From Octopus vulgaris (Eukaryota): 64,000 bases of DNA. The notes under the pieces are model-generated. The model made no database searches, was not told where the DNA came from, and saw only the letters and a program-made list of their open reading frames with translations. The position numbers and the translations under genes were made by a program. Position 1 is the stretch's first letter, and each line of letters starts with the position of its first letter. The stretch lies in assembly GCA_951406725.2 (NCBI GenBank), contig OX597816.1:140120001-140184000 (forward strand), read 5' to 3'. This document shows positions 800-55,255 of this stretch, piece by piece.

Positions 800-831
<32 letters not shown>

Positions 832-1029
832 CACACACACACAACACTCACACACATACATCACCTATATATATATAATGCATGCGTGTGCATGCCACGT
901 ATGTGTGCGGTCAATGCCCGCTAGTGTGTCCTATGCGTGCCGATGCGCGCATGTGCCCGCCCGCACGATATGCTGTGAGCGTGCGCGCGTCCCTGTGTGC
1001 TTGCTCTGCATGTGTTTCCAGGGGGTATG

Positions 1030-2442
1030 TTAGAGTATGTTTAGTTGTGGTCTGTATTTTTGAATAAGATTACTTTCCTTATTTATTCGTGTTTGGTCTG
1101 TGGTGTTGTCCGAGCATTGGTATAGTGGGAAGACTAAGAATTTGGGGGACTTATTGTGTGCACAAAGGTCTAAGTGTCCACTTAGTGGTATCTGTCTTGT
1201 GGAGGGGTCCCTCAGTTGTTGTCGGTGAACTGTCATTCTGTCTCTGAGGGTAAGGCTCGTTTGCCCTATGTAGTCTTCGTGGCATCCTTCACACCTTATG
1301 ACGTAGAGTAAATTTTTTGATGCGCACGTGAAATTATTTTTTATGATGAATGTGTGTCCCGAGTGGAACTTGTACGATGATCCCTCAATGAGGTGGATGC
1401 AGGTATTGCAGTTGGGGCGACCACATTTTTTTATGTTGGGCGGTGGGTTTGTGTTGTGTAATTTTGCGTTGGTGAGGAGGTTTTTTAGGGATTTAGGTTG
1501 TCTCTTACTTTTTATTATGTTATGAGTTGCCAGTATTTTTTTCAGGCGTGGGTCTTGATTTAGTTGTGGAATGTTGTTGTATATAATAGTGTAAGCTTAT
1601 GCATTCCTTGGGTTGTGTGTTGAGAGATAAGGGAGGCTATTGACTGTACTGTGGATGTGTTTGGGTTTTCGAAGGTCTTGAATGTTGATTGATTTGGCCC
1701 GTTCTATTCCGTTGTCTACTAGTGATGCCGGGTAATGTCTTTCGAGAAGAATTGCCCTTAGTTCCCGGAGTCTTCTATTTCGTGTTGTGTCATTTGAGAC
1801 AATAGTGCAGATTCTTCTCGCTAGGTTGAAGGGGATATTTGTCTTTGTGTGTTTTGGGTGATTGGAGGTGAATAGAAGGTATTGTTTAGAGTCAGTGGGT
1901 TTGTAATGGATGTCAGTTTCAATGTTGACGCCTTTTTTAATGATTAGGATGTCAAGAAAAGGGAGTTGGTCCTGACTATATTCCATTGTGAATTGAATGT
2001 TGTTATTTACACTGTTGATAAGGTTTTTGAAGTCTATAAGTTGGTCGAGTGTGTGGGACCATAGGATGAGGCAATCATCTAAGTAGCGTTTCCAGTTCTC
2101 CAACAGGTATTTGTGGAAAGACTGGCCGTACTTATATTTGGATTTTTCATAGATATGTGATTCCAGGTAGGCCATCACCAGGTTTGCATAGGTAGGTGCA
2201 ACTTTCGTACCCATTGCAGTTCCTGAGACCTGTCTGTAAGTGTTGTTGTGGAAATACATGAAGTTGTTTTGCAGAATAAATTTGAGGCCCTCAATTATGA
2301 ATTCTTTTTTAATTCTTTCCGGGATCTCATTGGGATATTTATCCAGCCAGAATTTAATGGCTTCCAGTCCAAATTCATGTGGGATTGTGAGTGTAAAGAT
2401 TAATAACATCAAAAGAAACGATTAAGGTGTCTTTATCGGCAT
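1030..2442 (-). pseudogene. Penelope-like retroelement (Neptune-type) RT plus C-terminal GIY-YIG endonuclease; 5'-truncated, with one frameshift and one premature stop
   Basis: Translation gives DTLIVSFDVINLY (frameshift near 2388), then GTAMGTKVAPTYANLVM, WKRYLDDC, LPFLDI, KPTD. Reading through the TAA at 1597-1599 gives a CGRPNC.TC linker, LYVIRCEGCHEDYIGQT...RMTVH...H and KE..LI..Y.P.LN. Confidence 0.92.
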
Positions 2443-3353
2443 GTTTCTTTTGATGTTATTAATCTTTACACCACTAATCCCAAACACATCCACAGTACAG
2501 TCAATAGCCTCCCTTATCTCTCAACACACAACCCAAGGAATGCATAAGCTTACACTATTATATACAACAACATTCCACAACTAAATCAAGACCCACGCCT
2601 GAAAAAAATACTGGCAGCTCATAACATAATAAAAAGTAAGAGACAACCTAAATCCCTAAAAAACCTCCTCACCAACGCAAAATTACACAACACAAACCCA
2701 CCGCCCACCATAAAAAAATGTGGTCGCCCCAACTGCAAGACCTGCATCCACCTCATTGAGGGATCATCGTACAAGTTCCACTCGGGACACACATTCATCA
2801 TAAAAAATAATTTCACGTGCGCATCAAAAAATTTACTCTACGTCATAAGGTGTGAAGGATGCCACGAAGACTACATAGGGCAAACGAGCCTTACCCTCAG
2901 AGACAGAATGACAGTTCACCGACAACAACTGAGGGACCCCTCCACAAGACAGATACCACTAAGTGGACACTTAGACCTTTGTGCACACAATAAGTCCCCC
3001 AAATTCTTAGTCTTCCCACTATACCAATGCTCGGACAACACCACAGACCAAACACGAATAAATAAGGAAAGTAATCTTATTCAAAAATACAGACCACAAC
3101 TAAACATACTCTAACATACCCCCTGGAAACACATGCAGAGCAAGCACACAGGGACGCGCGCACGCTCACAGCATATCGTGCGGGCGGGCACATGCGCGCA
3201 TCGGCACGCATAGGACACACTAGCGGGCATTGACCGCACACATACGTGGCATGCACACGCATGCATTATATATATATAGGTGATGTATGTGTGTGAGTGT
3301 TGTGTGTGTGTGTGTGAGTGTGCACGTTGTGTGTGTGTGTGTGCGCGTGTGTT

Positions 3354-15208: not shown

Positions 15209-16442
15209 CACAGACATCACAAAAGTAAATAGACACCCCATAAAACATCATTTTATGTTTATTCTAACTTGTAAAGGTTTATATTTTTATGTTTCAGGTT
15301 CTGTATGTGACTGTTTAATCATACCATGTATTAAAGAAGCTTTGGAACCGTCTGAATTTCAAAGAATCTGTATTGTGGGTCATTCTGAAGGTGGACATGG
15401 CGAAAAATCGAAGAAAACTTGGGGATCCCACTTTCTACTGTTAATAGAGTGATTGTGCAATTCCCCAGAGAGGAGAAGGAATCCGCATCACCTCGTACAG
15501 ATCAACCAGGGCCCTCTAACAGGATCCTTCTCTTTGTTAAGAGAAGTGTGGAGGATACTCCTTATTGCAAAGCCTCTGACATAGCAGAACAGGTTGATGT
15601 CAGTCCCAGAACAGCTGTCAGGTATCTCCACAAACTTGGTTACTATGGCAGGACAGCAAGAAGGAAGCCACTTCTTCGACCAGCTAACATCAAGCGAGAA
15701 AAGATTGAGCCAGTGAGATGTTGGAGAGGCCACTAGCATTTTGGGACACTGTCATATTATTTGATGAATCCAGATTTGTTGTATTTCCTGACAGTGGTAG
15801 AGTGTGGGTTTGGAGACTGTAATCAAGAATTTGACGCGAAAAGGTTGCAGCCAGCAATGAAACACGGCAACTATTCTCTGATAGTCTGGGAAGCAACTCT
15901 GGAGCAATGATTGATCAGAGTTGGTGGAGTGTGAGGGAAACATAAACTAAGATAAACATGTGTCCATATTGCAGAAAGGACTCCTTCCAGTCTTCCCCAG
16001 TGGTGAAATGATTAAAGAAAACTCTTTATTTATGGGAGACAGGGCTCCTTGTCACACGGCTAAAATGACCCAAGACTAGTTGGAAGAGAATGGTATTAAA
16101 AAGCTTCCATGGCCAAACCAGTCACCAGATGTAAACCCTATTGAACACCTCTAGGGCATAATGGACAAGAAACTTCATAAAAAGATCGAGAAAGTATCTT
16201 CAAAGACAGATCTTTGGAGATTACTGCATGAAACTTGGCAAGAAAATCCGCAAGAGAATATTTCGTCATCTGATCAGTAACATGCCTAATAGGGTCTTTG
16301 CATTGAAAAATGCAAAGGGTATGTCTACTAAATATTAAACATTCACATTATAACAATTAATAAATAATTTGAATGTATATTTTCAGAGTGAAATAAATTT
16401 TAATGATTATAAGGATGTCTATTTACTTCCGTCATGTCTCTG
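15209..16442 (+). mobile_element. Tc1 DNA transposon, full length, with decayed transposase
   Basis: TIRs are cacagacatcacaaaagtaaatagacaccc and ggatgtctatttacttccgtcatgtctctg. Motifs: STV.RV, GYYGRTARRKPLL, FDESRF, D.APCH, WPNQSPDVNPIEHL. Confidence 0.9.
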
Positions 16443-22619: not shown

Positions 22620-24030
22620 TGTGCGTCTTGTGTCATTGCACAGCTTTGGTTGAGAAACGTTGCACAGAAGTATGATTGGAGCGCCTATTTTCAATGGAAG
22701 GCAATGAGGAGGAGCTCCTGGTGGCTGCACTGAGTTTAAGAACTCAACCAGGTTATTGACTATTTCCGACTCATCTACAACAGAGTCTATAGATTTGTAG
22801 GTATGGTAAAAGTTTCGCGAATCTTTCATTTGAATTATTCACAGTAACGTTCTTTGGTGCTATGGTTACTCTTTCGCTCTACCAAGCAGCATTTGTGTAA
22901 TTTGAAATTATACTTGGGAAAAACTTTTTCAATAAGTTCCTCAAACGAACTGACTTGATGGATTCAAGTCACCTTCATGATTGATGTCTAGCCTTCCTTC
23001 AAGTTGTAAGATAGTATGGGCAAGTTGTTCCGACATGCAAGTGTGCCCTCATATTTGTAGAAAGCTCTAACATTTTGATACGTTTCCATAAAATAGAAGA
23101 TTTCAAGCATGCTTTCAGTTCATCCACCTTTCCCCCGAGAATCACTGGCAAAGTTTGTCTGAAATCACCTGAAAGCATTACTGTCACACCTTGCATCAAA
23201 CAATTGGGATTGCGCAAATCCTGCAACATTCTATTTACAGCTTCAACTGATTTTTATGGGACACTGTAGCTTCGTCCCATATGATCAAAGAACATTTCAT
23301 GAGAACTTGAGCTGAAGAACTTTTACTAATATTGCAGACAGGTTCATCATTTGAAGTTAGATTGGATGGCAGCTTGAATGCTACGTGAGCTGTTCGATCT
23401 CCTGGGAGTACAGTCGCTGCAATTCCAGAGCTCGCTACAGCTAACCCATTTCCCTTTTCTGCCAGATTTTGGCTAGCACTAAATTTGTAACAAAAGTATT
23501 TCCAGTTCCTCCTGGTGCGTCTAAAAAATATAATCTTTCTTATGTATCACTTGGTCAATGATTGTAGTATATGCAAAAGTTTCGGGACATTTTCTTCAAG
23601 GAATCTTGTAAATGAATCATTATTGTATGAAGTTCCTCGCAAAACTTCTGTGACCAAATTATTCATGTCATTTCGATGAGTTTCACGTAAGCCAAACTTG
23701 CTGAGCTCCTCTCCTCCCATTGAGACAACGCGATCTTCAATATCAACCAATGTAGAATTATGTCATCGTTGAATGCTATTTCTCTCTCAGGGAATCTTAA
23801 TCGTGCTTGATATTCGTAGTCTTCTAATAAATCATTCTTATATTTGTGCCACAACGCTAATGGATTCCTTACTTCACAATTCAGGTGAAAAATTGCAAAA
23901 AGATCTCTCAAAGAAATAGGTGTGTGTAACACTGAAGCCTCAGCCATTGTCCTGTCCTATTGATTGTCATCTAACAAATTTAAGGCTAAACCGGCTTCTT
24001 TATAAGTACAAACAGTTTGACCATCAATCT
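22620..24030 (-). pseudogene. Helitron Rep/Hel fragment (PIF1-family helicase), multiply disrupted
   Basis: Motifs LRDLFAI...C....P..LW, FLDAPGGTG, A.SSGIAAT.L.G.RTAH..FKLP, IIWDEA, LSGDFRQTLPVI, L..NMR, PPH.L.LK.GAPIILL.N. Confidence 0.92.
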
Positions 24031-24769: not shown

Positions 24770-26280
24770 TAAACCACAACAGATTCTCTTCCAGAGTTTT
24801 CTAGCAAATGGCAAACTGTCAAGCAAACTGAAGGAGGAAATATTATGCCCAATCCAAAGAAGGAAGCAGAGGAGATACCGAAAATTATAGGCCTGTCTCT
24901 CTGACTTCACACGTCAGAAAAGTGATAGAACGAATAGTTAGAAGGAAGCTAATCGTATTCCTTGAAGAAAACGACTTACTGAGTGATACCCAATGCGGTT
25001 TTCAAACAGGTAGGAGCTGTCTGACACAACTCCTACAACACTGTGACTGGGTGTTGACGCAATTACTCGATTACTCAAATGCGAACGTAATATACCTTGA
25101 CTTTGCAAGACCTTTTGATAAAGTTGATCATGATATGACATGCCGCAAACTGCGCGATTTTGGCATAGCAGGAACACTTGGAGAGTGGTTACATGGCTTT
25201 CTGAAAGATAGCAGTCAGGCACTGGTGGCCAATGGAGCGACCTCAAAGGAAACACAAATAATGAGCTATATTCCACAGGGCACTGTCTTTTTGTAGTGGC
25301 CCTCTCAGATATGCCTTCAGCTGCCCGGATACCCACACTTGCTAGCTTCGCCGACGATACGAAAGTCTCGCAGAAAATACAGAATCCTCGCGATTTTACT
25401 TGCAGCAGGAGTTGGACGCAATTTACAGATATGCTGAAGACAATAACATGCAGCTTAATGCTGGAAAATTCCAGGCCCTGCGCTACCAGCACCCAGAACT
25501 GAACGAAAAACTTACAGGGTACACTGATCCAGTGGGGATTACAATCCCAGAAACTAAATCAGTGCGTGACCTGTGTATCGACATGAGTGATGATACCTCT
25601 TTCCAAGTGCACATTACCAAGATGGCGACAAAGTGCAGACGGCTGCCTTAGATCTTGAGAACCTCGTAAACTAGAGAGAAGGAAACCATGATGGTCCTCT
25701 GGAGGATATTCGTCCTCAGCCGCCTGAACTACTGCTCCCAACTATGGTCACCCCACAATGTGAAACTAACAGCAGACATTGAAGCAATCCAGCGAATCTT
25801 CACAAAAAAGATCGTCTCATTGCAACAGCTCAGCTACTGGGAAAGGCTAAAACAACTAAAACTCTACTCCATGGAGCGAAGGCGTGAAAGATATGCAGTG
25901 ATATACATCAGGAAGATCCTGGAAGGGATTGTGCTAAATTTTGGTATTAAAAGCTACACAGATGCCAGAATGGGTCACCACTGCACAGTGCCAAAAATCT
26001 CAACAATACCGTCATGCTTCAGGACCAATTACTGCAACAGCCTGGTTTTCAAGGGCCTACAGCTTTTTAATATTCTCCCAAAGAGCCTGAGGGACCTACA
26101 CAAAGGGAATGTAGGTGTTTTCAAAACAAAACTGGATCTCTTCCTGTCGAGAGTCCTAGATGAACTCCCTTATTGACCAAATTCCACACATCAGAGGAGG
26201 CTCTCAATAATAATAGTGTAGCGAAACGGTGGTGACCCAGCATGACCTCTACTTTGAGCTGAAACCGATAAACATAAAGT
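24770..26280 (+). mobile_element. CR1-type LINE, 5'-truncated RT with 3' UTR, decayed
   Basis: Motifs NYRP.SLTS, Q.GF..GRSCLTQLL, YLDFA..FDKVDH, PQG, FADDTK, L.YCSQLWSP, Y.ERLK.L.LYS.E.RR.R. Confidence 0.93.
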
Positions 26281-33899: not shown

Positions 33900-36100
33900 T
33901 CCACATTTCTGTCCGTATGAACATACATCAGAAATAGCAGCCTCTTGACTGAAAATTTCAGACGTATAACTTCTCAGCTCAGTGTCAATGGATTTAGTAA
34001 AGGAGCTCGCCAAGACACTGGCCCTTGTTTTTGGTTGTGTATTCGGAACCGCACAAGTATGCCCGATACCCGACAAGTCTATCCACGACAATCTCCAGCT
34101 CATGCGATACGTCATAGAACGGGTCAGGAATAGATTTAGCTTTAACGGAACACTGGTCAGTTTAGATCAGTCCAAGGCATTCGACAGTGTAAACCGTCAC
34201 TATCAGGCGGCTATCCTAAGAGCTGTCATTTTCATCACTGATAGTGACAACATCCTCAGCAACAGGAACAACTTCAACCTGTGGAGGAAATGTTGATGGG
34301 GATGACAGTACATTTGGTTGAGATCACCACACTGTACAGCAGTATCTGCTCAGTTGTCATGTTGAACGACCACTTCCTGGGACCTTTCAGTATCGAACGT
34401 TTGATCTGTCGAGGCTACCCTTCTCTTGGCTCTTGTTTAGGCGTTGGAACCTTTCCTGCGAAGGATGGAGAGTTTGAGGAGTATCACGCTGGATCTAGGT
34501 CACTGTGTTTGCATATGCGGATGACGTCCCTGGAATGATGTCGGACACTTTAAATATAGAACCGATCGACACTATACTGAGGGTATAGCAGATATGTACA
34601 GGAAGACACAAAAACCAGGACAATTCGGTGGTTTTGCAATTAGGCACCTAGAGAGGCAAGTCCATCTTTATCCATGACGACCATTGTCCAATGAAAGTGT
34701 TCATAGTCTGTCCATAGTATGACCAGGTGGATAGGAACCAGGAAGAGGACATAAATGATGGTCAATCTCACACAAGAATTAGGCTGAAAGGAAGCCGTCT
34801 CTGAAAAGCCGGGCGGAAGTAGTGAATTCATATACCCACTCGGTAGTGTACTACCTTCTGGCGTAACTTGTCTCATGAAAACTCTGACCAGATTGGAATG
34901 CTTGCTTTTCCGACTCTTCTGGAAGGGTCAGGTTCCGCTGACAAGGAAATTCAGTAACTGCTAACACCCATTCCGTGGTGGTCTTGGGATATTGTCATTG
35001 AAGATGTACCGGCACGAGTTGTGTGTGTGTGTGTGTACGAGCATGTCTTCACGACGACGACGTATGTGAGAGTGATCTGGTGTAGGCATTTTTCGCGCGA
35101 CACGTCTTTCCGTTGCACGTCTCCCTGACTGAGCTATAGGTATAGATGAAGCGTAGACAAAGATTGGGCGTTTGTCATCTAGAATGTGGATAGGCGCTCA
35201 CAGAATTGTACCAGCTAGACGAAGCTATATGCAAAAATAAATAAATAAATAAATAAATAAAACAACTAAAGATTACCATAAGGAATTAGTTGAGGATATG
35301 GGCGATGACAGCCTAGAATTGACTGTGGGCATCGACAAAAGCAGTCTGTGTGGTTTCTTCTGGAGGACTTTCATGTTGGAGACTGTAGACAAGACAACTT
35401 CCAAAAGTCAATGGCATGGTAGTGCTACAGAGGAGGGGTATAACTTGTTCGTGACAAGCTCTTTAGGAATGGAAGCGCCAACAGCCAGAAACATGCAGGA
35501 GACGAAATCGTCCTGCAAGCAATCGTTCAGAGTCTGTGCATTAGCGACTTGTGGGATTGTGTTGAGTAGTAGCTATTTCGTGTAAGACGATTCCGGCTGT
35601 CCGCCGAGTATATGGTAAAGATTGACGCACTATTTCCATTTGATAGAAAATGAAGGCAAATATTTCCCTGCTGTGGACTCGTCTGAAAGGTTTGAAGGTA
35701 GACGATTTCCTATCTAGCCAAGCTCTTTAGTATCATTTGACGAGAAAGGTGAAGGAGAGGTTGCCTTCTCGAGTGTTTAGCAAAAGATAGGGAAGAGTTG
35801 CAATACTAGTGAAGCTAAATGAGACCACTCTGATTATGCTGTTGATAGGAGAAAAATTTGAAGAGAGTATTTCCAATGCTTTGGAGACGGCAGAATAATG
35901 AGGGACTTTTTGTGGGGATTGCCCCGCTATTAATGATACTATTTATTTATTTATTTTCCTGTATTCTATTTTCATATCTTTATAGTTGCTTCCCTTTTTG
36001 ATCGATGTAAGCCCTAACTTTTGGCGTTTGTGTGCATTTATTTCGTCCTTTGATGTAGTCATCAATATATTGGGCATTTGTGGCCAATAAAAGAAATTAT
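33900..36100 (+). mobile_element. Tx1/L1-clade LINE, 5'-truncated and heavily decayed
   Basis: Motifs ENFR.IT, Q....P.KSIHDNL.LMR..I, LVSLDQSKAFD.V, AYADDV (34511-34528); 3' end ttgtggccaataaaagaaat. Confidence 0.8.
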
Positions 36101-46946: not shown

Positions 46947-48359
46947 TGCGGGAGCTACAATACTAGGTCATGCAAAGACCAAAAATATAACAATCGCAAT
47001 GACGAATGTAATAACGCCGATAGAACACAAACCAATAGCATCGCCTATAGCAATAACAACAGTGACAATAGCAAGGATTCCTTCGCTGAAATAATCTTCT
47101 TGAGGGAACTATACAGGCTCTTCCTATAGGATAAGCGAACAAAATTAGAAGTCGTCACCAGATTTTGTGAAACTGAAAGTAGAATACAGGGCTTGTGCAT
47201 ACTAGAAAGACTGTTATATATCGCTGTATGAGATTAACAACACGTCAACTAGAGACGGTCACAACTCACGAGCAGAACGAATTATCTACGATATATTGCA
47301 GGATATCGAATATATATCAAGGGTGACATAGTTCAGCGGGGTTGAATTTCTATTTAAGACTGAGACTTTCACAATGCAACATTCGTTTGTCACAACATGG
47401 ACTTCACTCTCCTCCTCCATCTTATTTGGGAAGAAAGGCAGTAAAGGAAACATTATCAGGATTGCTGGTGGATATTAGCATGCATAGTGATGGAAGGGAG
47501 TTAAGTGAACTAGGCGTGAAAACTGGGTTGGGGCCAAGACTGTAGTCTGAGCATAAGGAGAGGACTGTTGACCTCATATCCCTGCCGATTGGGACGAAAT
47601 TACTTGTAATTTTGGAGGGCAGGAGACCAAGATATATATACACACAAACATACATACTAAATTATTATATAGATGCAAATTAAGTGGCGACAAAAGTATA
47701 TCATACAATGGTGCTGTGAATAAAGAGAACTTGACCAGACAGCACTGAGTTAAATATAGACAACACCCTGTTATTGATTGCATGCATACATATCAGTTAA
47801 AGGGAATATTGGGACAACATTCCCTGAAAACATCCACTAGATGTAAATACAACAAGTCCGCTACAAATGTTTGATACAAGAGAAAAATCATGTCCATCCA
47901 TAGGTCATAGTGGTCAGCTACCCTGAAGATGTAAATACCGGTGAGAAGAAGAATGTTTATGAACGACTGCCTCGAATCTGCAGTTTCTCAATCCTGATTA
48001 TATAAAAACATGAAGTATGATTATTTAAAAGATTTGAGATATCTTACGATCGTCTCATGATTGTATTATCCTTTGAAATGAAATCCAAAATTGATAATCA
48101 TTATTAAGTAGAGAAAAGGATGAATTTCCGTGTAGTTAATCGAATGAGAGATATGCCATTTAAAAACGTATGATAAAGAGGTTGTTTAAAAAATTACTGG
48201 CATAGATATGCATTAGTACAATCTTGGGCTAAAAGTTTTGAAGAAATAATATAGATCCGTGGTAAAATCCCTTGTAGCAATCCATAATGGCTGTGTGTAG
48301 ATAGAAGTCCCATAAAACCATTCTCTTCAATATGTAATCCACAAATGCAGAAAATAAAA

Positions 48360-49660
48360 GTGATTTCTTTATTACCCACAAGGGGCGAACAGAGGAAATA
48401 ACACAAAATGTGTGGGGACAAAAAGCGAATGAAAGAAAAATGAAATGAAAATGAAAAGATGAATGAAGCCTTTCGGCCCCCACCTTAAACGCAATCAAAT
48501 TCCATCTGCGTTTTTCTTTGTGTCGGTGGGGTGTCGGGAGGTTTGGCGTCTATAGGGAGAGGATGGAGCAAAGTGGGTGTAGGTCGACATCCACAGGATG
48601 TACCTTTTCTTCTTTTTCTATTTTTCCTTCAGACCGTTTCCCAATCATTCTCTTCGTTGTTTGCTCTTTCATCAGCACTTAAGTTTTCTTTTGTTGGCGC
48701 TGGAGGTGTGACTTCCTCCCTGCTCATAGGCCCTTCTTGGGTTTTTTTAGGTGGCGGAGGACAGAACGTTTTAATGTGGCCTTTTAGGCCACACTCATAC
48801 CAACGCGGGGTTCTGCCCTCCACTCTCTGACCCTGATTATCAAATCTTCTATAGATATAGTTTCTATTATATTTTCAAGGTTCTCCGGAGCCGCTTGGAT
48901 AATTATATCCAGGCTCTGCTCTTGCCAATACTTATGAGCTGTTTTTGTGGCTTGGAGGACCACTATCTTATCTTCAATGCCCAGCAGTATGGCAGCTATT
49001 AGCCAGGCTACGACAATCTCTGGTGGTACATCTACCCTAATCCTGGAAGCACGTCTCCTAAGGTATATTAGTAGAAGTACCACTTCTGTCTTTAAAGGGG
49101 CTGTCGAGTGTAACCTGGCAGTAGCTACCTTTCGGAAGCGCGCCTCCACTGTTCCGAACATCCTTTCTCTGGCAAGGTACTAAATCCCTTGCCAGATTGG
49201 CTTCAAGGCGTTTTCTACTTGATTGGTCGTCATTATTTCGATTTTCTTTGTTTTCATGGAGTACGTTCTATATATTATAGTTTTCTCCTTGGTTGCTTTC
49301 AAAATTTCTTAGGGAGGGAATACCTTTACGTCGCACCCCTCCCTACAAAATATGTTCTTATATTTACTCAGTTTGGTTAGTTCGACTTCGTTGCTGTTGC
49401 TCTTGGCGACAGCCGCAAAATCTCTTTTCTTTACCTACTCCTCCATTACTTCGACAGACCTCAGAAGACGTAAGCTCCGAGGAGGTGAGGCTTTCATACT
49501 CCATCGTTAATACTTGTGCTCCCCACATCTTCGAAGGGGGAAAGCGTCGACAGATTGCTATAAGGCAGTAAAACAAGTGTAACAAAGTGTTTTAAAAAAC
49601 TCGAAACGATTTTAACAATAAATGATTCAACAAAATAACGCTCACGTACGTCAATGCTTA
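48360..49660 (-). mobile_element. ORF1-only (HAL1-like) retroelement, unit 1 (divergent subfamily, disrupted ORF)
   Basis: 5' agcattgacgtacgtgagcgttattttgttgaatc; zinc knuckle VEGRTPRWYECGLKGHIKTFCP; 3' gccccttgtgggtaataaagaaat; no RT or endonuclease. Confidence 0.8.
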
Positions 49661-51321
49661 ATTATTTACTACCCACTAGGGGCGACATAGAGGGGACACT
49701 ACAAAACATTGGGGGCACAGAACATAACAATCAAAATTATGGAAAATGAATTTTTAAATGAAAATGATAATATGAAAGTGATGCTAACGGCCCCATCCGT
49801 TAGCATCGCTTACCTGTCCTTTGGTTTTTACTTCCACACAAATATTCCTCTTTCAGTTCCAATCACGAAACCATTCATCTCCATTCTTACTTCAAAATAC
49901 TCCTCCAATTCTCTCACGGTTTCTTCAATCATTCTCGTCTCTTTCACTTCCCAATTCTCCCTTTCACACTTTGTCATAAAATCATCTATTCTCTCCTTTT
50001 CAATCACTGCATACCTGATCTGACCTATTTCATACCATTTATACTCCTCCATTGCCTTTTTAATTTATTTCTTTCCTGTGAAAATTAAAATATTTGGCCT
50101 GGGTTCGTTTTTTCCGCCCTGATTATGCGTGTCCTTTTTTTGTTTTCTTGTTGGAGGGGAGCGGGTGGGTTCACTGTCTGCAGGGAGTGGGTGGGACTCA
50201 GAGGGTGTGGGTTGTGTTGGGATGGGTTGGGGTTCCATACTGTTCAACTTTCTCCCTCTCTTTCTTTTTTTCTTTTCCTCCACCCATTCGTTTTTGGCCT
50301 CCTCTCCTGTTGTTTCACACTCCACTTCTTCTTTATTTTCTTCTTCTCCTTGTGTCTCCATAACAGTTTCCTTTGGTGGGAGAGGACAGTAAGCTCTTAT
50401 GTGGCCCCTCAGGCCACATTTATAGCATCTTGGTGCTCTGCCCTCCACCCACACTCTCATGACAATGTTTCCCATATTAATGTTATCTGTCATTCCTTCA
50501 ATTGCACTCTCCTCCGCTTGAACACTCATTTCCAGCGTCTTTCCACGCCATCCTTCACTCTTTACAGTAGCCTGTAAGATGTCTACCTCTTCTTCGATGC
50601 CTTTTATAACTGCTGCGGTGACCCATTCGCCTTCTATGTGGGGGGGGGGGTATCCCCTCCGTCCTTATCTTTGTTGTTCTCTTATTCCTATACGTTGGTA
50701 GTAAATATACTTTTTCTGTCTTTAACGCCTTGGCTGCCATTCTTCTTGCCATACTTTTACTTCCATACTGTACCATTATCGTACCATATTCAATTCCTCT
50801 GACCACAAACACAATTTCCTCCTCCACTCTTCTTAAGTCCTCCTCTATGTCTTCCATCTTTACTGTTTCCACTCTTTTGTTATCTTTTACGAATGTTCTG
50901 TATTTTATGACTCTTTCTTCAAACCATTCGGTACGCTTTTCTGGCGGTAACAGTTTCACTTCGCCTCCCTCCTTCGTCATGTATGCTTGATAGCCTGGTA
51001 ACTTTTCCAGGTCTATCTTTTTTTCGTCTGTTTTTCTTGCTGCTCCCGCGTACGTTTTACCAACCTTAACGTCTATTTTCTTTACGGCATCAGTCAACTC
51101 GTCCTCGGAGTTGATCGATACCTCCGATAGACTTTCGAAAAGTCTTTCTTCGTCCATCTCTCCCATTAGGGAGGGGCAGTCCATCTCGTTTTATCTGTCT
51201 CAATACAGACAGACAACGGCCGACAGCCCAACAACAGTGTAACAAGGTCGCGCGAAAAATCCGTATAACAAAACGTACAATAAACGATTCAACAAAATAA
51301 CGCTCACGTACGTCAATGCTG
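49661..51321 (-). mobile_element. ORF1-only (HAL1-like) retroelement, unit 2; ORF 51184-49828 (~450 codons) with one frameshift (G run ~50640) and one stop (50065)
   Basis: CCHC knuckle CYKCGLRGHIRAYC; same 5' motif as unit 1; 3' gtcccctctatgtcgcccctagtgggtagtaaataat. Confidence 0.85.
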
Positions 51322-53221
51322 ATTTATTTACTACCCACTAGGGGCGACATAGAGGGGACACTACAAAACATTGGGGACATAGAACATAGCAATTAAAATT
51401 ATGGAAAATGAATTTTTAAATGAAAAATGATAATATGAAAGTGATGCTAACGGCCCCATCCGTTAGCATCACTTACCTGTCCTTTGGTTTTCACTTCCAC
51501 ATAAATATTCCACGTTCACTTCCAATAATAAAACCATTCATCTCCATTCTTACTTCAAAATACTCCTCCATATGTCCCATGGTTTCTTCACTCATTCTCG
51601 TCTCTTTCACCTCCCAATTCTCCCTTTCACACTTTGTCATAAACTCATCCATTCTCTCCTTTTCAATCACTGCATACCTGGTCTCACATATTTCATACCA
51701 ATTACACTACTCCATTGCCCCTTCAACCTCCCTCCCTCCTGTCAAAGTTAAAATGTTTGGCCTGGGCTCGTCCTCCGCGTCCCGTCTCTGCGCGTCCCCC
51801 CTTTGCTTTCTTGTTGGAGGGGAGCGGGTGGGCTCACTGTCTGCAGGGAGTGGGTGGGACTCAGAGGGTGTGGGCGGTGTTGGGGTGAGTTGGGGGCTCA
51901 ACATTGTTCAACCCTCTCCCTCTCTTTCCCCCCTTTCCCTCCTCCACCCACTCGTTCCGGGCCTCCCCCTCTGCGCCTTCACACTCCTCCTCCTTACCTT
52001 CCTCCTCCCTCTGCGTCTCCACAACAGTGGTGGGGGAGGGCAGTAAGCTCGTATGTGGCCCCTCAGGCCACACTTATAGCACCTTGGTGCTCTGCCCTCC
52101 ACCCATACTCTCATGGCAACACTTCCCATGTCAATATTATCTGCTACTCCCTCAATTGCCCCCCTCCTCCGCCCGAATACTCATTCCCAGCGTCCCTCCA
52201 TGCCATCCTTCACTTCTTACAGCAGCCCGCAACATGTCCACCTTCTCCTCCATGTCCTTTACAACCGCTGCCGCGACCCACTCGCCCTCCCTGTGGAGGG
52301 GGGCATCCCCTCCACCCCCATCCCTGCTGTTCTCCCACTGAAACACGTTGGTAGCAAATATACCTCTTCCGTCTTCAACGCCTTGGCCGCCATTCCTCCT
52401 GCCACACTTCCACTTCCGAACCGTACCATCATCGAACCGTACTCAATTCCTCCGACCAAGGCGGCGAGCTGGCAGAAACGTTAGCACGCCGGGCGAAATG
52501 CGTAGCCGTATTTCGTCTGTCGTTACGTTCCGAGTTCAAATTCCGCCGAGGTCGACTTTGCCTTTCATCCTTTCGGGGTCGATAAATTAAGTACCAGTTG
52601 CGTACTGGGGTCGATGTAATCGATTTAATCCCTTTGTCTGTCCTCGTTTGTCCCCTCTGTGTTTAGCCCCTTGTGGGTAGTTAAGAAATCAATTCCTCCG
52701 ACCACGAACACAACTTCCTCCCCCACTCCTCCCAACGCCTCCTCTATGTCTTCCATCTCCACCGCTTCCACTCCCTTGCTATCCTTCACGAATGTTCTGC
52801 ATTTCATGACTCCTTCTTCAAACCACTCGGTACGCCCCCCTCCTGGCGGTAACAGTTTCACCCCGCCTCCCTCCTTCGTCACACAAGCTTGCTAGCCCGG
52901 CAACTCTTCCAGGTCCATCTCTCTATCTACCGTTCCTCCTGCAGCTCCCGCGCACGTTCCACCAACCTCCACGTCTACCCTCTTTACGACATCAATCAGC
53001 TCGTCCTCAGAGGTCGACACCTCCGATAGACATTCGAAAAGTCCTTCTTCGTCCATCCCACCCATTAGGGGGGGGCAGTCCATCTCCCTTTGTCTGTCTC
53101 AACACAGACAGACAACGGCCGACAGCCCAACAACAGTGCAACAAGGTCGCGCGAAAAATCCGTATAACAAAACGTACAATAAACGATTCAGCAAAATAAC
53201 ACTCACGTACGTCAATGCTGC
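51322..53221 (-). mobile_element. ORF1-only (HAL1-like) retroelement, unit 3; A-to-G hypermutated and interrupted by a SINE
   Basis: Colinear with unit 2. Differences are dominated by T>C on the plus strand (A>G in sense). Confidence 0.88.
52459..52688 (+). mobile_element. SINE family B, young copy with 16-bp TSD
   Basis: TSD tcaattcctccgacca at 52443-52458 and 52689-52704; A/B boxes present. The central gcctttcatcctttcggggtcgataaattaagtaccag resembles the MetaSINE core domain (from memory). Confidence 0.93.
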
Positions 53222-53359
53222 GCAGAAAATAAAATTTTTGCTTTTATAGTTATATATACAAAAACTGGAAGATATCATTAATATATTTTATGCAAATGTA
53301 AAAATAGCCGTGTACTGACCCAATATAGAGTAAATTAATGTATTATATTTAAATCATTA

Positions 53360-53773
53360 AGGCGGCGAGCTGGCAGAAACGTTAGCATGCCGGGCGAAAT
53401 GCTTAGCGGTATTTTGTCTGCCGTTACGTTGTGAGTTCAAATTCCGCCGAGGTCGACTTTGCCTTTCATCCTTTTGGGGTCGATAAATTAAGCACCAGTT
53501 ACGCACTGGGGTCGATGTAATCGACTTAATACCTATGTCTGTCCTTGTTTGTCTCCTCTGTGTTTAGCCCCTTGTGGGTAATAAAGAAATAGGGTATTTT
53601 GTCTGCCGCTACGTTCTGAGTTCAAATTCCGCCGAGGTCGACTTTGCCTTTCATCCTTTCGGGGTCGATAAATTAAGTACCAGTTCACTGGGGTCGATGT
53701 AATCGACTTAATCCATTTGTCTGTCCTTATTTGTCCCGTCTGTGTTTAGCCCCTTGTGGGTTGTAAAGAAATA
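53360..53773 (+). mobile_element. SINE family B dimer with 16-bp TSD
   Basis: TSD tatatttaaatcatta at 53344-53359 and 53774-53789; two tandem bodies. Confidence 0.92.
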
Positions 53774-53799
53774 TATATTTAAATCATTATACTTAAAAT

Positions 53800-55255
53800 C
53801 AGTTTGTTGTACATCAGAGGTGTACAGGTTCAGATTTCACGAAGACATTTCCGGCACTCATCCAATGGATAATTTATATTATGTGAACATGTGTATACAC
53901 AAAATAATTCAATTTTAAGTTTCTTTTTTCTTACTTACAACAGCCCTACTATTTTATTATGATACCAGTATATGAAAAACAAGATATTAATGTGAATCTT
54001 ACCTTGATGATCTCTTATCGTGTTTAAAAGTTTTATAAAACCTATGTCTACATGTGGATAATGCTTCTGATTGGCAATTAATTGAATTATTTTGTTTACA
54101 TAATAATATGTATAGCGATTCTTTTGCACAAAGACGGTAGATAGAAGAGTTATGTGTATATGGTGTAGCTGAGTCAATGAGGATAATTTATAGTTAACAT
54201 TTTTGCTTTTTGTAGTTTATGTACATATGTAACCAATGAAGTTGTGTTACTCGTTATATTCGGTTTAAATGAATGTATACGTGCTACAAATCTTTGCTTA
54301 AAGTTGATAGAGCTCCCTACATATACCACACTGTGTGCGTTAACAGTTTTTGTAACAGTGCACTGTTACAAAACGTCGAACTTTCTACATTTGCCTTCTA
54401 AAGGACATGATTTTTTTATTTTTACATGTGCAAAATTTATTTGTATGTTTCTGTTCCGTTGTATAATATTTAATACTGTTACGATTATTTGTTATGGTGT
54501 ATGGTGTTATATTTGAATTTGTTGTGGAATCATTTATAATAGAATTAGGTAAATTTACTGTTTGTATATTACTATTGTTATTAGATTGTGGTACTTGATT
54601 ATCTAAAGTCCTGTCTTATCCAATCGTTTGCATATTTTGGGTGTATAATTATTGGAATTTTACTGAGATTTTGTTAATGTTACAGTATCGCTATGTATTC
54701 TCGTAATGTTATCTATTGAAATGGTATTATATTGAGTATTATTTGGTGTTCTAGGACTACTGCATATTTCATTACCGGTATTATAGTTGTTACTATTATT
54801 TCTTAAACTATTTTTGTATTTATTAAGTCTTCGTCTATTAGAGCTAGCGAAAATGGATCCTATGTTCGACAATGTAGAAAAAGATATTTTAATTGTTGAT
54901 CTATTAAATATATGGTGATACTTATGATTATTAGGTAAGTTATTTTAGACTATGTTTAAAATATTTTTTTTTTTTGCTAATCACTTAACATTATTGAAAA
55001 TGGGGGTGTATACCAAAAAAATTTCCCTATTTCCACTCCATCTAGGTAATTTACTATAGTTATATACTATTTTTGGAATTTGCATAGTATTTCCCGAGTG
55101 TTTTTGTTATTACTATATTTGGTTCTATATGTCTACAATAACATTTTCTCGGTTTTTGTCATGTCTTACGGAGGTTTGATCTTTTTGTATTGATTGAATA
55201 TTATTGTTATAGGTAAGGCTAGCTGCATTTCTTATTTTAATATTATGTGTATTTT
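53800..55255 (-). mobile_element. Old PLE 3' fragment (RT thumb/linker plus GIY-YIG), Nematis-like
   Basis: IWYTPIFNNV...HKYHHIFNRSTIKISFSTLSNIGSI and CTCK...CPLEGKC...VL.QC.V...VYVGSS.NFKQR, read across frameshifts. Confidence 0.75.

Follow-up and report, generated by a model that had tools for sequence, protein, structure and literature searches.

A head-to-tail stack of three ORF1-only retroelement units in Octopus vulgaris, best read as serial insertion into a resident 5' head, with an A-to-G hyper-editing signature in one unit

The window analysed here, a stretch of 64,000 nucleotides (64 kb) from Octopus vulgaris (GenBank assembly GCA_951406725.2, contig OX597816.1, positions 140,120,001 to 140,184,000 of the forward strand), carries three retroelement units that encode only a first open reading frame (ORF1) and are joined head to tail on the minus strand, inside a dispersed host repeat and between the two copies of a single outer target-site duplication (TSD). 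All positions are those of the whole stretch, and labels beginning with C and L denote contigs and loci of the assembly, the window itself lying on C3. Read in the sense of the units, the arrangement is TSD0-X-unit 3-X-unit 2-X-unit 1-TSD0, where TSD0 stands for the outer TSD and X for a 44-nt head; a short interspersed nuclear element (SINE) lies within unit 3. The features are as follows.

47999..48346, minus strand: downstream part of the host repeat, dispersed, with genome matches at 74-86% for the 40 of 215 candidates scored
48347..48362, minus strand: 3' copy of the outer TSD, 16 bp with a 13-bp core at 48347-48359, present once in empty paralogues
48363..49658, minus strand: unit 1, family A, ORF1-only, internally deleted, ORF broken, 79-86% identical to other A copies, probably the oldest resident
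49615..49658, minus strand: head X of unit 1, 44 nt, the native family A 5' end and putative target of later insertions
49659..51320, minus strand: unit 2, family B1, ORF1-only, unedited, with the ORF1 start at 51184, a frameshift at a C run near 50640 and a CCHC knuckle near 50430-50385
51277..51320, minus strand: head X before unit 2, with a C at position 19 that it has in common with unit 1 only
51321..53219, minus strand: unit 3, family B1, ORF1-only, hyper-edited, of a mosaic haplotype other than that of unit 2
51690..53090 (approximate), minus strand: hyper-edited zone of unit 3, unit positions ~130-1290 (~1.15 kb), both ends of the unit being spared
52443..52703, plus strand: SINE with its TSD in unit 3, the SINE (52458-52688, 231 bp) lying antisense between 15-bp TSD copies at 52443-52457 and 52689-52703, both of which hold an edited G
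53176..53219, minus strand: copy of head X before unit 3
53222..53234, minus strand: 5' copy of the outer TSD, of which 13 bp remain after a loss of ~8 bp
53235..53345, minus strand: upstream part of the host repeat, with a putative TATA-like sequence motif at 53248-53242

The 13-mer that brackets the stack, taken in the original prediction as a target-site duplication, occurs in the window at 48347 and 53222 only. Among 29 aligned paralogues of the host repeat, eight run through the site without an insertion and hold one copy of the motif each, exact in seven of them (L129, L136, L138, L140, L149, L150 and L152) and with one mismatch and a short gap in the eighth (L151); the outer TSD is therefore genuine, and the trimer inside it is real. 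The duplication stands, although its predicted length does not, because the paralogues identify the "cac" at the 3' junction as target DNA, so that the outer TSD measures 16 bp and its upstream copy is ~8 bp shorter. Similarly, the expected empty site with a single motif was found in paralogues of the host repeat, and no orthologous partial allele was seen. Further insertions of the same family occupy this host repeat at L130, L131, L135, L142, L143, L145, L147 and L101, at most ~20 bp from the site in the window; the last of these (on C16) was considered as a partial allele, since it holds A-family pieces in the same repeat, but it is rearranged and only ~76% alike, and was not used. A small-RNA gene as target was likewise rejected, Rfam giving no matches in 20 loci.

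The three units begin with a common 18-nt start motif on the minus strand, at 49658, 51320 and 53219, and their 3' ends agree with the original description. The view that all three are full-length does not hold for unit 1, which spans ~1,296 bp against ~1,640 bp in its relatives owing to one deletion of ~330 bp and several smaller ones; unit 3 has the 231-bp SINE in addition. Each unit contains one ORF with a CCHC knuckle and no reverse transcriptase, and intact relatives reach 498 aa. The ORF1 of Tx1-clade elements combines an RNA recognition motif (RRM) fold with a CCHC knuckle. In the family studied here, the zf-CCHC domain falls mostly under the Pfam cut-off; 13 family ORFs can nevertheless be aligned, including the ORF1 of two autonomous elements (28-29%), and in comparison with the ORF1s of L193, L194 and L012 the ORF1s of the unit families have 26-32% identity with invariant CCHC residues. 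A structure model of one family B ORF1 has a mean confidence (pLDDT) of 66 overall and 80-90 in its core, and its best fold matches are tandem-RRM proteins, at TM scores of only 0.2-0.4. The units are accordingly taken as ORF1-only non-LTR (long terminal repeat) elements with a tandem RRM and a CCHC knuckle. The proposal that they were mobilised in trans and derive from three different source RNAs is supported as well.

Units 2 and 3 are ~93% alike once A-to-G differences are set aside. The derivation of unit 3 from unit 2, whether as a daughter copy or by tandem duplication, was rejected on account of their differing mosaic haplotypes and of only 5 privately shared sites among 1,512. As a side observation, a perfect splice-donor-like motif stands just past the ORF1 stop of family B (~49770-49820 and 51435-51480, minus strand), with a short hairpin after it, and acceptor-like and donor-like motifs also lie in the family heads.

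The 3' tail of the units is also found in the autonomous elements L193, L194 and L099, of which L193 and L194 are Tx1-like elements that themselves lie inside arrays. The second ORF of L194 (L194:1757-5149, minus strand) is uninterrupted over 1,131 aa and contains the domains Exo_endo_phos, RVT_1 and zf-RVT; it matches human L1 ORF2p at E=8e-68, its nearest clade-named match is a TX1 149-kDa protein, so that "Tx1-like" is a naming by nearest match, and the nearest named cellular match of the partner reverse transcriptase comes from Argonauta hians, at 63%. The short tail with which the units terminate is fixed and abuts the TSD, without poly(A). Judged from these sequences, the units would act like HAL1 elements and yet depend on a Tx1-like partner. 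The abundant SINE seen in the window at 52458-52688, at 53380-53770 and elsewhere has the same 3' tail as the family, and was probably moved by the same machinery.

The internal junctions, described in the original prediction as flush joins with no internal TSD, present a different picture when the origin of X is considered. At up to three mismatches X has eight occurrences, and all five outside the window continue into family A bodies. With the first 191 nt of unit 2 as the query (40 of 73 candidates scored), the closest relatives align only from position 40-41 onwards, and positions 1-44 are matched by family A heads only; the two closest B1 relatives carry another head, and neither the X pattern search nor this 5'-end search found an X-headed B1 copy outside the window. 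The sequences thus mark the X on units 2 and 3 as foreign to B1 and as coming from the family of unit 1. Since X belongs to that family, a direct repeat of the family A head, 44-46 nt long, stands on both sides of unit 2 and of unit 3, and was overlooked in the flush joins. Position 19 of X is C in units 1 and 2 and T in unit 3 and in all 11 of the other A heads in which this column is present. The duplicated target would comprise the whole of X or at least its first 17-20 nt, and any remainder of X may have come with the RNA.

Stacks of this type are built by the family throughout the genome. The 3'-end pattern has 264 genome matches (control, 0), and monomers and multimers, the mapping of which had been proposed, were counted by hand among the 100 listed: 30 of these 3' ends have a same-strand neighbour within 6 kb and 28 lie in head-to-tail arrays, the remaining pair (L186) being two separate insertions. 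Different families and autonomous elements occur together in the arrays, with at least 8 units in the one at C20:24.8 Mb. The TSD is repeated at each junction in L098, L102, L103, L187, L188, L194 and L201, and re-cutting at exactly the same base is found in L187, L188, L201, L098 and L103; in the arrays on C20, C12 and C5, the point at which a tail meets the inside of the next head shifts from unit to unit, and the outermost unit retains its whole head and upstream flank. At mixed-family junctions, the downstream head or target is repeated before the upstream unit over 18 nt (L099), 19 nt (L197), 24 nt (L193) and 33 nt (L189), and over 44-45 nt in the four dimers on C28, the corresponding repeat in the window being 46 nt; these C28 dimers are near-identical and probably reflect one event. 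These junctions were read by eye, and the automated count of 27 of 47 junctions with an upstream copy was set aside, as it included spurious matches and missed loci whose cut lies ahead of the 5' boundary. Of 30 ends taken without selection, 5 have another ORF1 following within 1.5 kb, and 2 of these 5 come from the present locus. The preference for repeated targets is only partial, arrays and recurrent targets being seen for full-length copies, while 5'-truncated short monomers are scattered over unrelated sites with TSDs of 15-19 nt.

Several observations may be set beside these counts. In the C20 array (C20:24.804-24.819 Mb; L192, L206), which has 8 or more units, near-intact family B units lie on the 5' side and other families toward the 3' side, and a TATA-like motif stands just upstream of the outermost head; five family matches ~1,670 bp apart at C1:142.947-142.954 Mb mark a probable further array. 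At L156, L189, L192, L197, L207 and L105 and in the window (53248-53242), cuts cluster at most ~50 bp from TATA-like motifs that lie in conserved upstream repeats, a proximity that may hint at promoter-proximal targeting.

The relative ages of the units were estimated by several measures. The divergence of unit 1 from the majority sequence of family A is 7.8% and is biased towards C>T/G>A, and private changes other than A>G number 44 in 1,296 (3.4%) for unit 1, 20 in 1,658 (1.2%) for unit 2 and 22 in 1,646 (1.3%) for unit 3 (Fisher p=8e-6). Changes of C>T at conserved C amount to 12/215, 5/197 and 4/194 in units 1, 2 and 3, respectively, and unit 1 has several deletions as compared with none in unit 2 and one in unit 3. 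Depending on the measure, the divergence of unit 1 exceeds that of the others by a factor of 1.3 to 2.7, which favours an older unit 1 without being decisive.

The contrast between an unedited unit 2 and a hyper-edited unit 3, noted from the outset, is borne out by 158 A>G against 17 G>A differences from unit 2 to unit 3, and the direction is fixed by outgroups, in which A is ancestral at 135 of the 158 A/G sites; the opposite explanation, an APOBEC-type G>A change in unit 2, is ruled out by the same outgroups. When unit 2 and five close copies serve as the reference state, G stands in unit 3 at 153 of the 565 A positions, together with 11 G>A changes. Editing depends strongly on the 5' neighbour, affecting 12 of 168 A after G (7%) as compared with 85 of 214 after A and 35 of 89 after T (39-40%; p=1e-13), and has a slight preference for a 3' G; the last 370 nt hold 4 changes where 41 would be expected. 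In addition, the edited sequence is present in an independent DNA run, X4 (organism B), in which a contig of 705 nt spans 52052-53008 with 17 other differing letters and without the SINE. The edited G in both copies of the SINE's TSD and this SINE-less edited contig indicate that the editing preceded the SINE and is no assembly artefact.

Unit 3 is not the only such copy. Of the 123 family units that were extracted, 99 could be aligned with a relative over at least 400 bp, and in this non-random set, enriched for relatives of the window units and for arrays, three units are hyper-edited, namely unit 3, L179 and L175. In L179 (C4:36.21 Mb), 100 of 316 A are edited with depletion of 5' G (p=8e-7) and the 3' end is spared; in L175 (C3:135.10 Mb, with L211), 60 of 515 A are edited, again with 5'-G depletion (p=4e-5), and both the 3' end and the 5' untranslated region (UTR) are spared. 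A fourth candidate, L192-2340, has 17 A>G changes without 5'-G depletion and was not counted. The unedited 5' end of unit 3 was also considered as a sign of DNA templating and rejected, for the monomer L175 likewise spares its 5' UTR. Inverted family copies stand 2-4 kb apart at C28 loci, a possible context for double-stranded RNA. The editing signature itself is observed directly, and ADAR would be the enzyme to which the pattern points; the context in unit 3 fits ADAR because it matches that reported in the available text of PMC8586724.

The history that best accommodates these data is a serial insertion into the 5' head of a resident, which is regarded as probable and corresponds to the first alternative offered with the original prediction, self-targeting to the 5' end. 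An ORF1-only element of family A would first have entered the dispersed repeat and made the outer TSD; the TSD is observed, and the order of events is the conjectural part. Two B1 RNAs, mobilised in trans by a Tx1-like APE-type reverse transcriptase that recognised the shared 3' tail, would later have been inserted at the start of the head, each after a nick at the first base of X, with the 5' end of the complementary DNA joined through the homologous head, so that X, in whole or over at least its first 17-20 nt, was duplicated as a hidden TSD. The source RNA of unit 3 would have been A-to-I hyper-edited by ADAR over ~1.15 kb before the reverse transcriptase read inosine as G and the copy became fixed in the germ line, and the SINE would have entered unit 3 last. 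Serial insertion is favoured because the head of the resident is duplicated at the junctions, because unit 1 is more decayed, and because the same stacks recur at many loci.

A number of points weigh against this serial history. The terminal branches of trees with A/G changes masked, 0.053 for unit 1 against 0.041 and 0.033, give only a modest age gap, the B tree being inflated by mosaicism, and the counts of private changes vary with the closeness of the sampled relatives; moreover, units 2 and 3 are alike in age and cannot be told apart. X, at 44 nt, exceeds the 15-19-nt TSDs of the truncated monomers, and in both B1 units the change from X to the native body falls at the same 5-nt microhomology, a shared breakpoint that a lost X-headed B1 master would explain equally well; X-headed RNAs of this kind could have arisen if B1 had earlier inserted into a different A head, although no such master was found. 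The C at position 19 could stem from later gene conversion between adjacent heads. No allele or species with one or two of the units was seen, and among the contigs of runs X4, X10, X11 and X12 over 47600-54000 none listed spans an internal junction. Among the joints listed for the same runs, in a table swamped by SINE matches, none skips units 2-3; a contig of 1,858 nt from X11 leaves the locus at 48361, differs at 8 of 102 positions and probably represents a paralogous copy of the flanking repeat.

Among the alternatives, a mixed history survives best, though it is considered unlikely: unit 1 would be a resident, and units 2 and 3 would have arrived together in one later event, by a template jump that left the unit 2 RNA at its 5' end and resumed at the 3' end of the unit 3 RNA. 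Their equal private divergence, the same head-body breakpoint, their near-identical first 130 nt and a mutual junction with only 1 extra base all speak for such a joint arrival; at the same time, it requires X-headed B1 RNAs, of which no other copy was found, and re-cutting at the same base is common in other arrays. The event originally proposed, a single target-primed reverse transcription that ran through three RNAs one after the other with end-to-end template jumps, has in its favour the one outer TSD around all units, the three different RNAs of which one is edited, and the end-to-end jumping of R2 that is cited in the accessible part of PMC4494074. Its improbability follows from the B1 units carrying a family A head with a locus-private variant, from a more decayed unit 1 without a close source (best relative 81% by BLAST among the 40 of 414 candidates scored), from the 46-nt repeat of the unit 1 head that flanks the junction of units 2 and 1, unlike a duplication-free join of the R2 type, and from the arrays elsewhere, in which a duplicated target lies between units.

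Just as doubtful is stacking in a burst, in which an unsealed nick at the start of the copied duplication would prime the next RNA at once, so that several RNAs are added in one episode with duplications between them; exact re-use of the cut at loci of differing site sequence and the like age of units 2 and 3 speak for it, whereas the greater decay of unit 1 is left unexplained and the cuts are staggered in the C20, C12 and C5 arrays. A pre-existing trimer elsewhere, transcribed by read-through and reinserted as one RNA, would account for an old unit 1 within an intact 13-bp TSD and recalls the near-identical dimers at four C28 loci, but this trimeric master is very improbable and largely refuted already in this assembly, as the junction pattern has two genome-wide matches, both at this locus, the edited haplotype is single-copy (next best match of the edited core 79%, among 40 of 611 candidates scored), and unit 2 is unedited beside its close relative.

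Elsewhere in the window, an 838-bp perfect inverted repeat surrounds a fragment with a Penelope-like reverse transcriptase and GIY-YIG at 831-3313, and fragments of a Tc1-type transposase, of a PIF1 helicase and of two reverse transcriptases of long interspersed nuclear elements (LINEs), located at 15389-15736, 23235-23546, 24832-25296 and 33970-34296, are ordinary decayed repeats.

Precedents for the individual components exist singly, as ORF1-only derivatives, as Tx1 stacking at preferred repeats and as ADAR-hypermutated retroviral DNA. Head-to-tail or self-nested arrays that grow by repeated insertion beside older copies are known from HeT-A/TART, Zepp and Cnl1; the window-type arrays are likewise head to tail, but they are interstitial, have TSD-like duplications and mix autonomous with ORF1-only families. 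HAL1 elements end in poly(A). As described in the available portion of PMC5753468, HAL1 is non-autonomous and encodes only ORF1p; the units resemble it in coding for ORF1p only and in being flanked by TSDs, and differ in a partner that is Tx1-like and not a mammalian L1, in a tandem RRM with CCHC, in a fixed tail common to partner and SINE, and in forming arrays. For the crocodilian Tx1-Mar and SINEU elements, the text available from PMC4494074 reports tandem copies that sandwich a TSD, read by its author as sequential insertions, and a Tx1 preference for other repeats; Tx1 machinery, repeat preference, non-autonomous passengers and TSD-sandwiching tandems are thus common to both systems, whereas the crocodilian case, as far as that text goes, involves a Mariner target and SINEs headed by small nuclear RNA, and the present one protein-coding half-elements of several families with the 5' heads of residents as the site.

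With regard to editing, the avian retroviruses RAV-1 and ALV are described in the consulted part of PMC8586724 as A-to-G hypermutated by ADAR with 5'-G depletion; clustered A>G changes, the same depletion and passage by reverse transcription into DNA are found here as well, in contrast with which the present elements are non-LTR, fixed in the germ line and recurrently edited (3 of 99 units). Restriction of human L1 by ADAR1 is reported as editing-independent, with no edits found, in the text available from PMC5224506. The G-to-A "DNA editing" fossils left by APOBEC in genomic retroelements, according to the accessible text of PMC2873906, are comparable as deaminase fossils, while the changes here are A>G on the sense strand, in another context and on an RNA substrate. 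A term search of the main text of an octopus LINE paper (PMC9115989) gave no occurrence of Tx1. In a literature search confined mostly to open journals, without Repbase or supplements, no title or opening of an abstract dealt with head-targeted mixed stacks of ORF1-only Tx1-like elements or with germline-fixed, ADAR-edited non-LTR copies.

For the study of such elements, the locus illustrates that flush junctions seemingly without a TSD can conceal a duplication within a shared head, and head-targeted stacking explains the swapping of 5' ends between families, here the gain of an A head by a B1 body. The triple template jump probably did not happen, and the germline editing fossils are the more interesting part of the finding than the stack. 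RNA editing is extensive in animals of the cephalopod type and is normally not inherited. Hyper-edited retrocopies represent edits that enter the germ-line genome, and thereby leave a dateable and scannable trace of ADAR acting on retroelement RNA. On balance, and by a slight preponderance only, the genome may be taken to hold a heritable fossil record of germline ADAR on LINE-type RNA, in which several percent of the Tx1-dependent ORF1-only copies would derive from hyper-edited RNA, the 3' priming end being always spared; the family would home to the 5' heads of its relatives and build mixed stacks, and ADAR would mutate or restrict non-LTR elements in the way that APOBEC3 acts on LTR elements.

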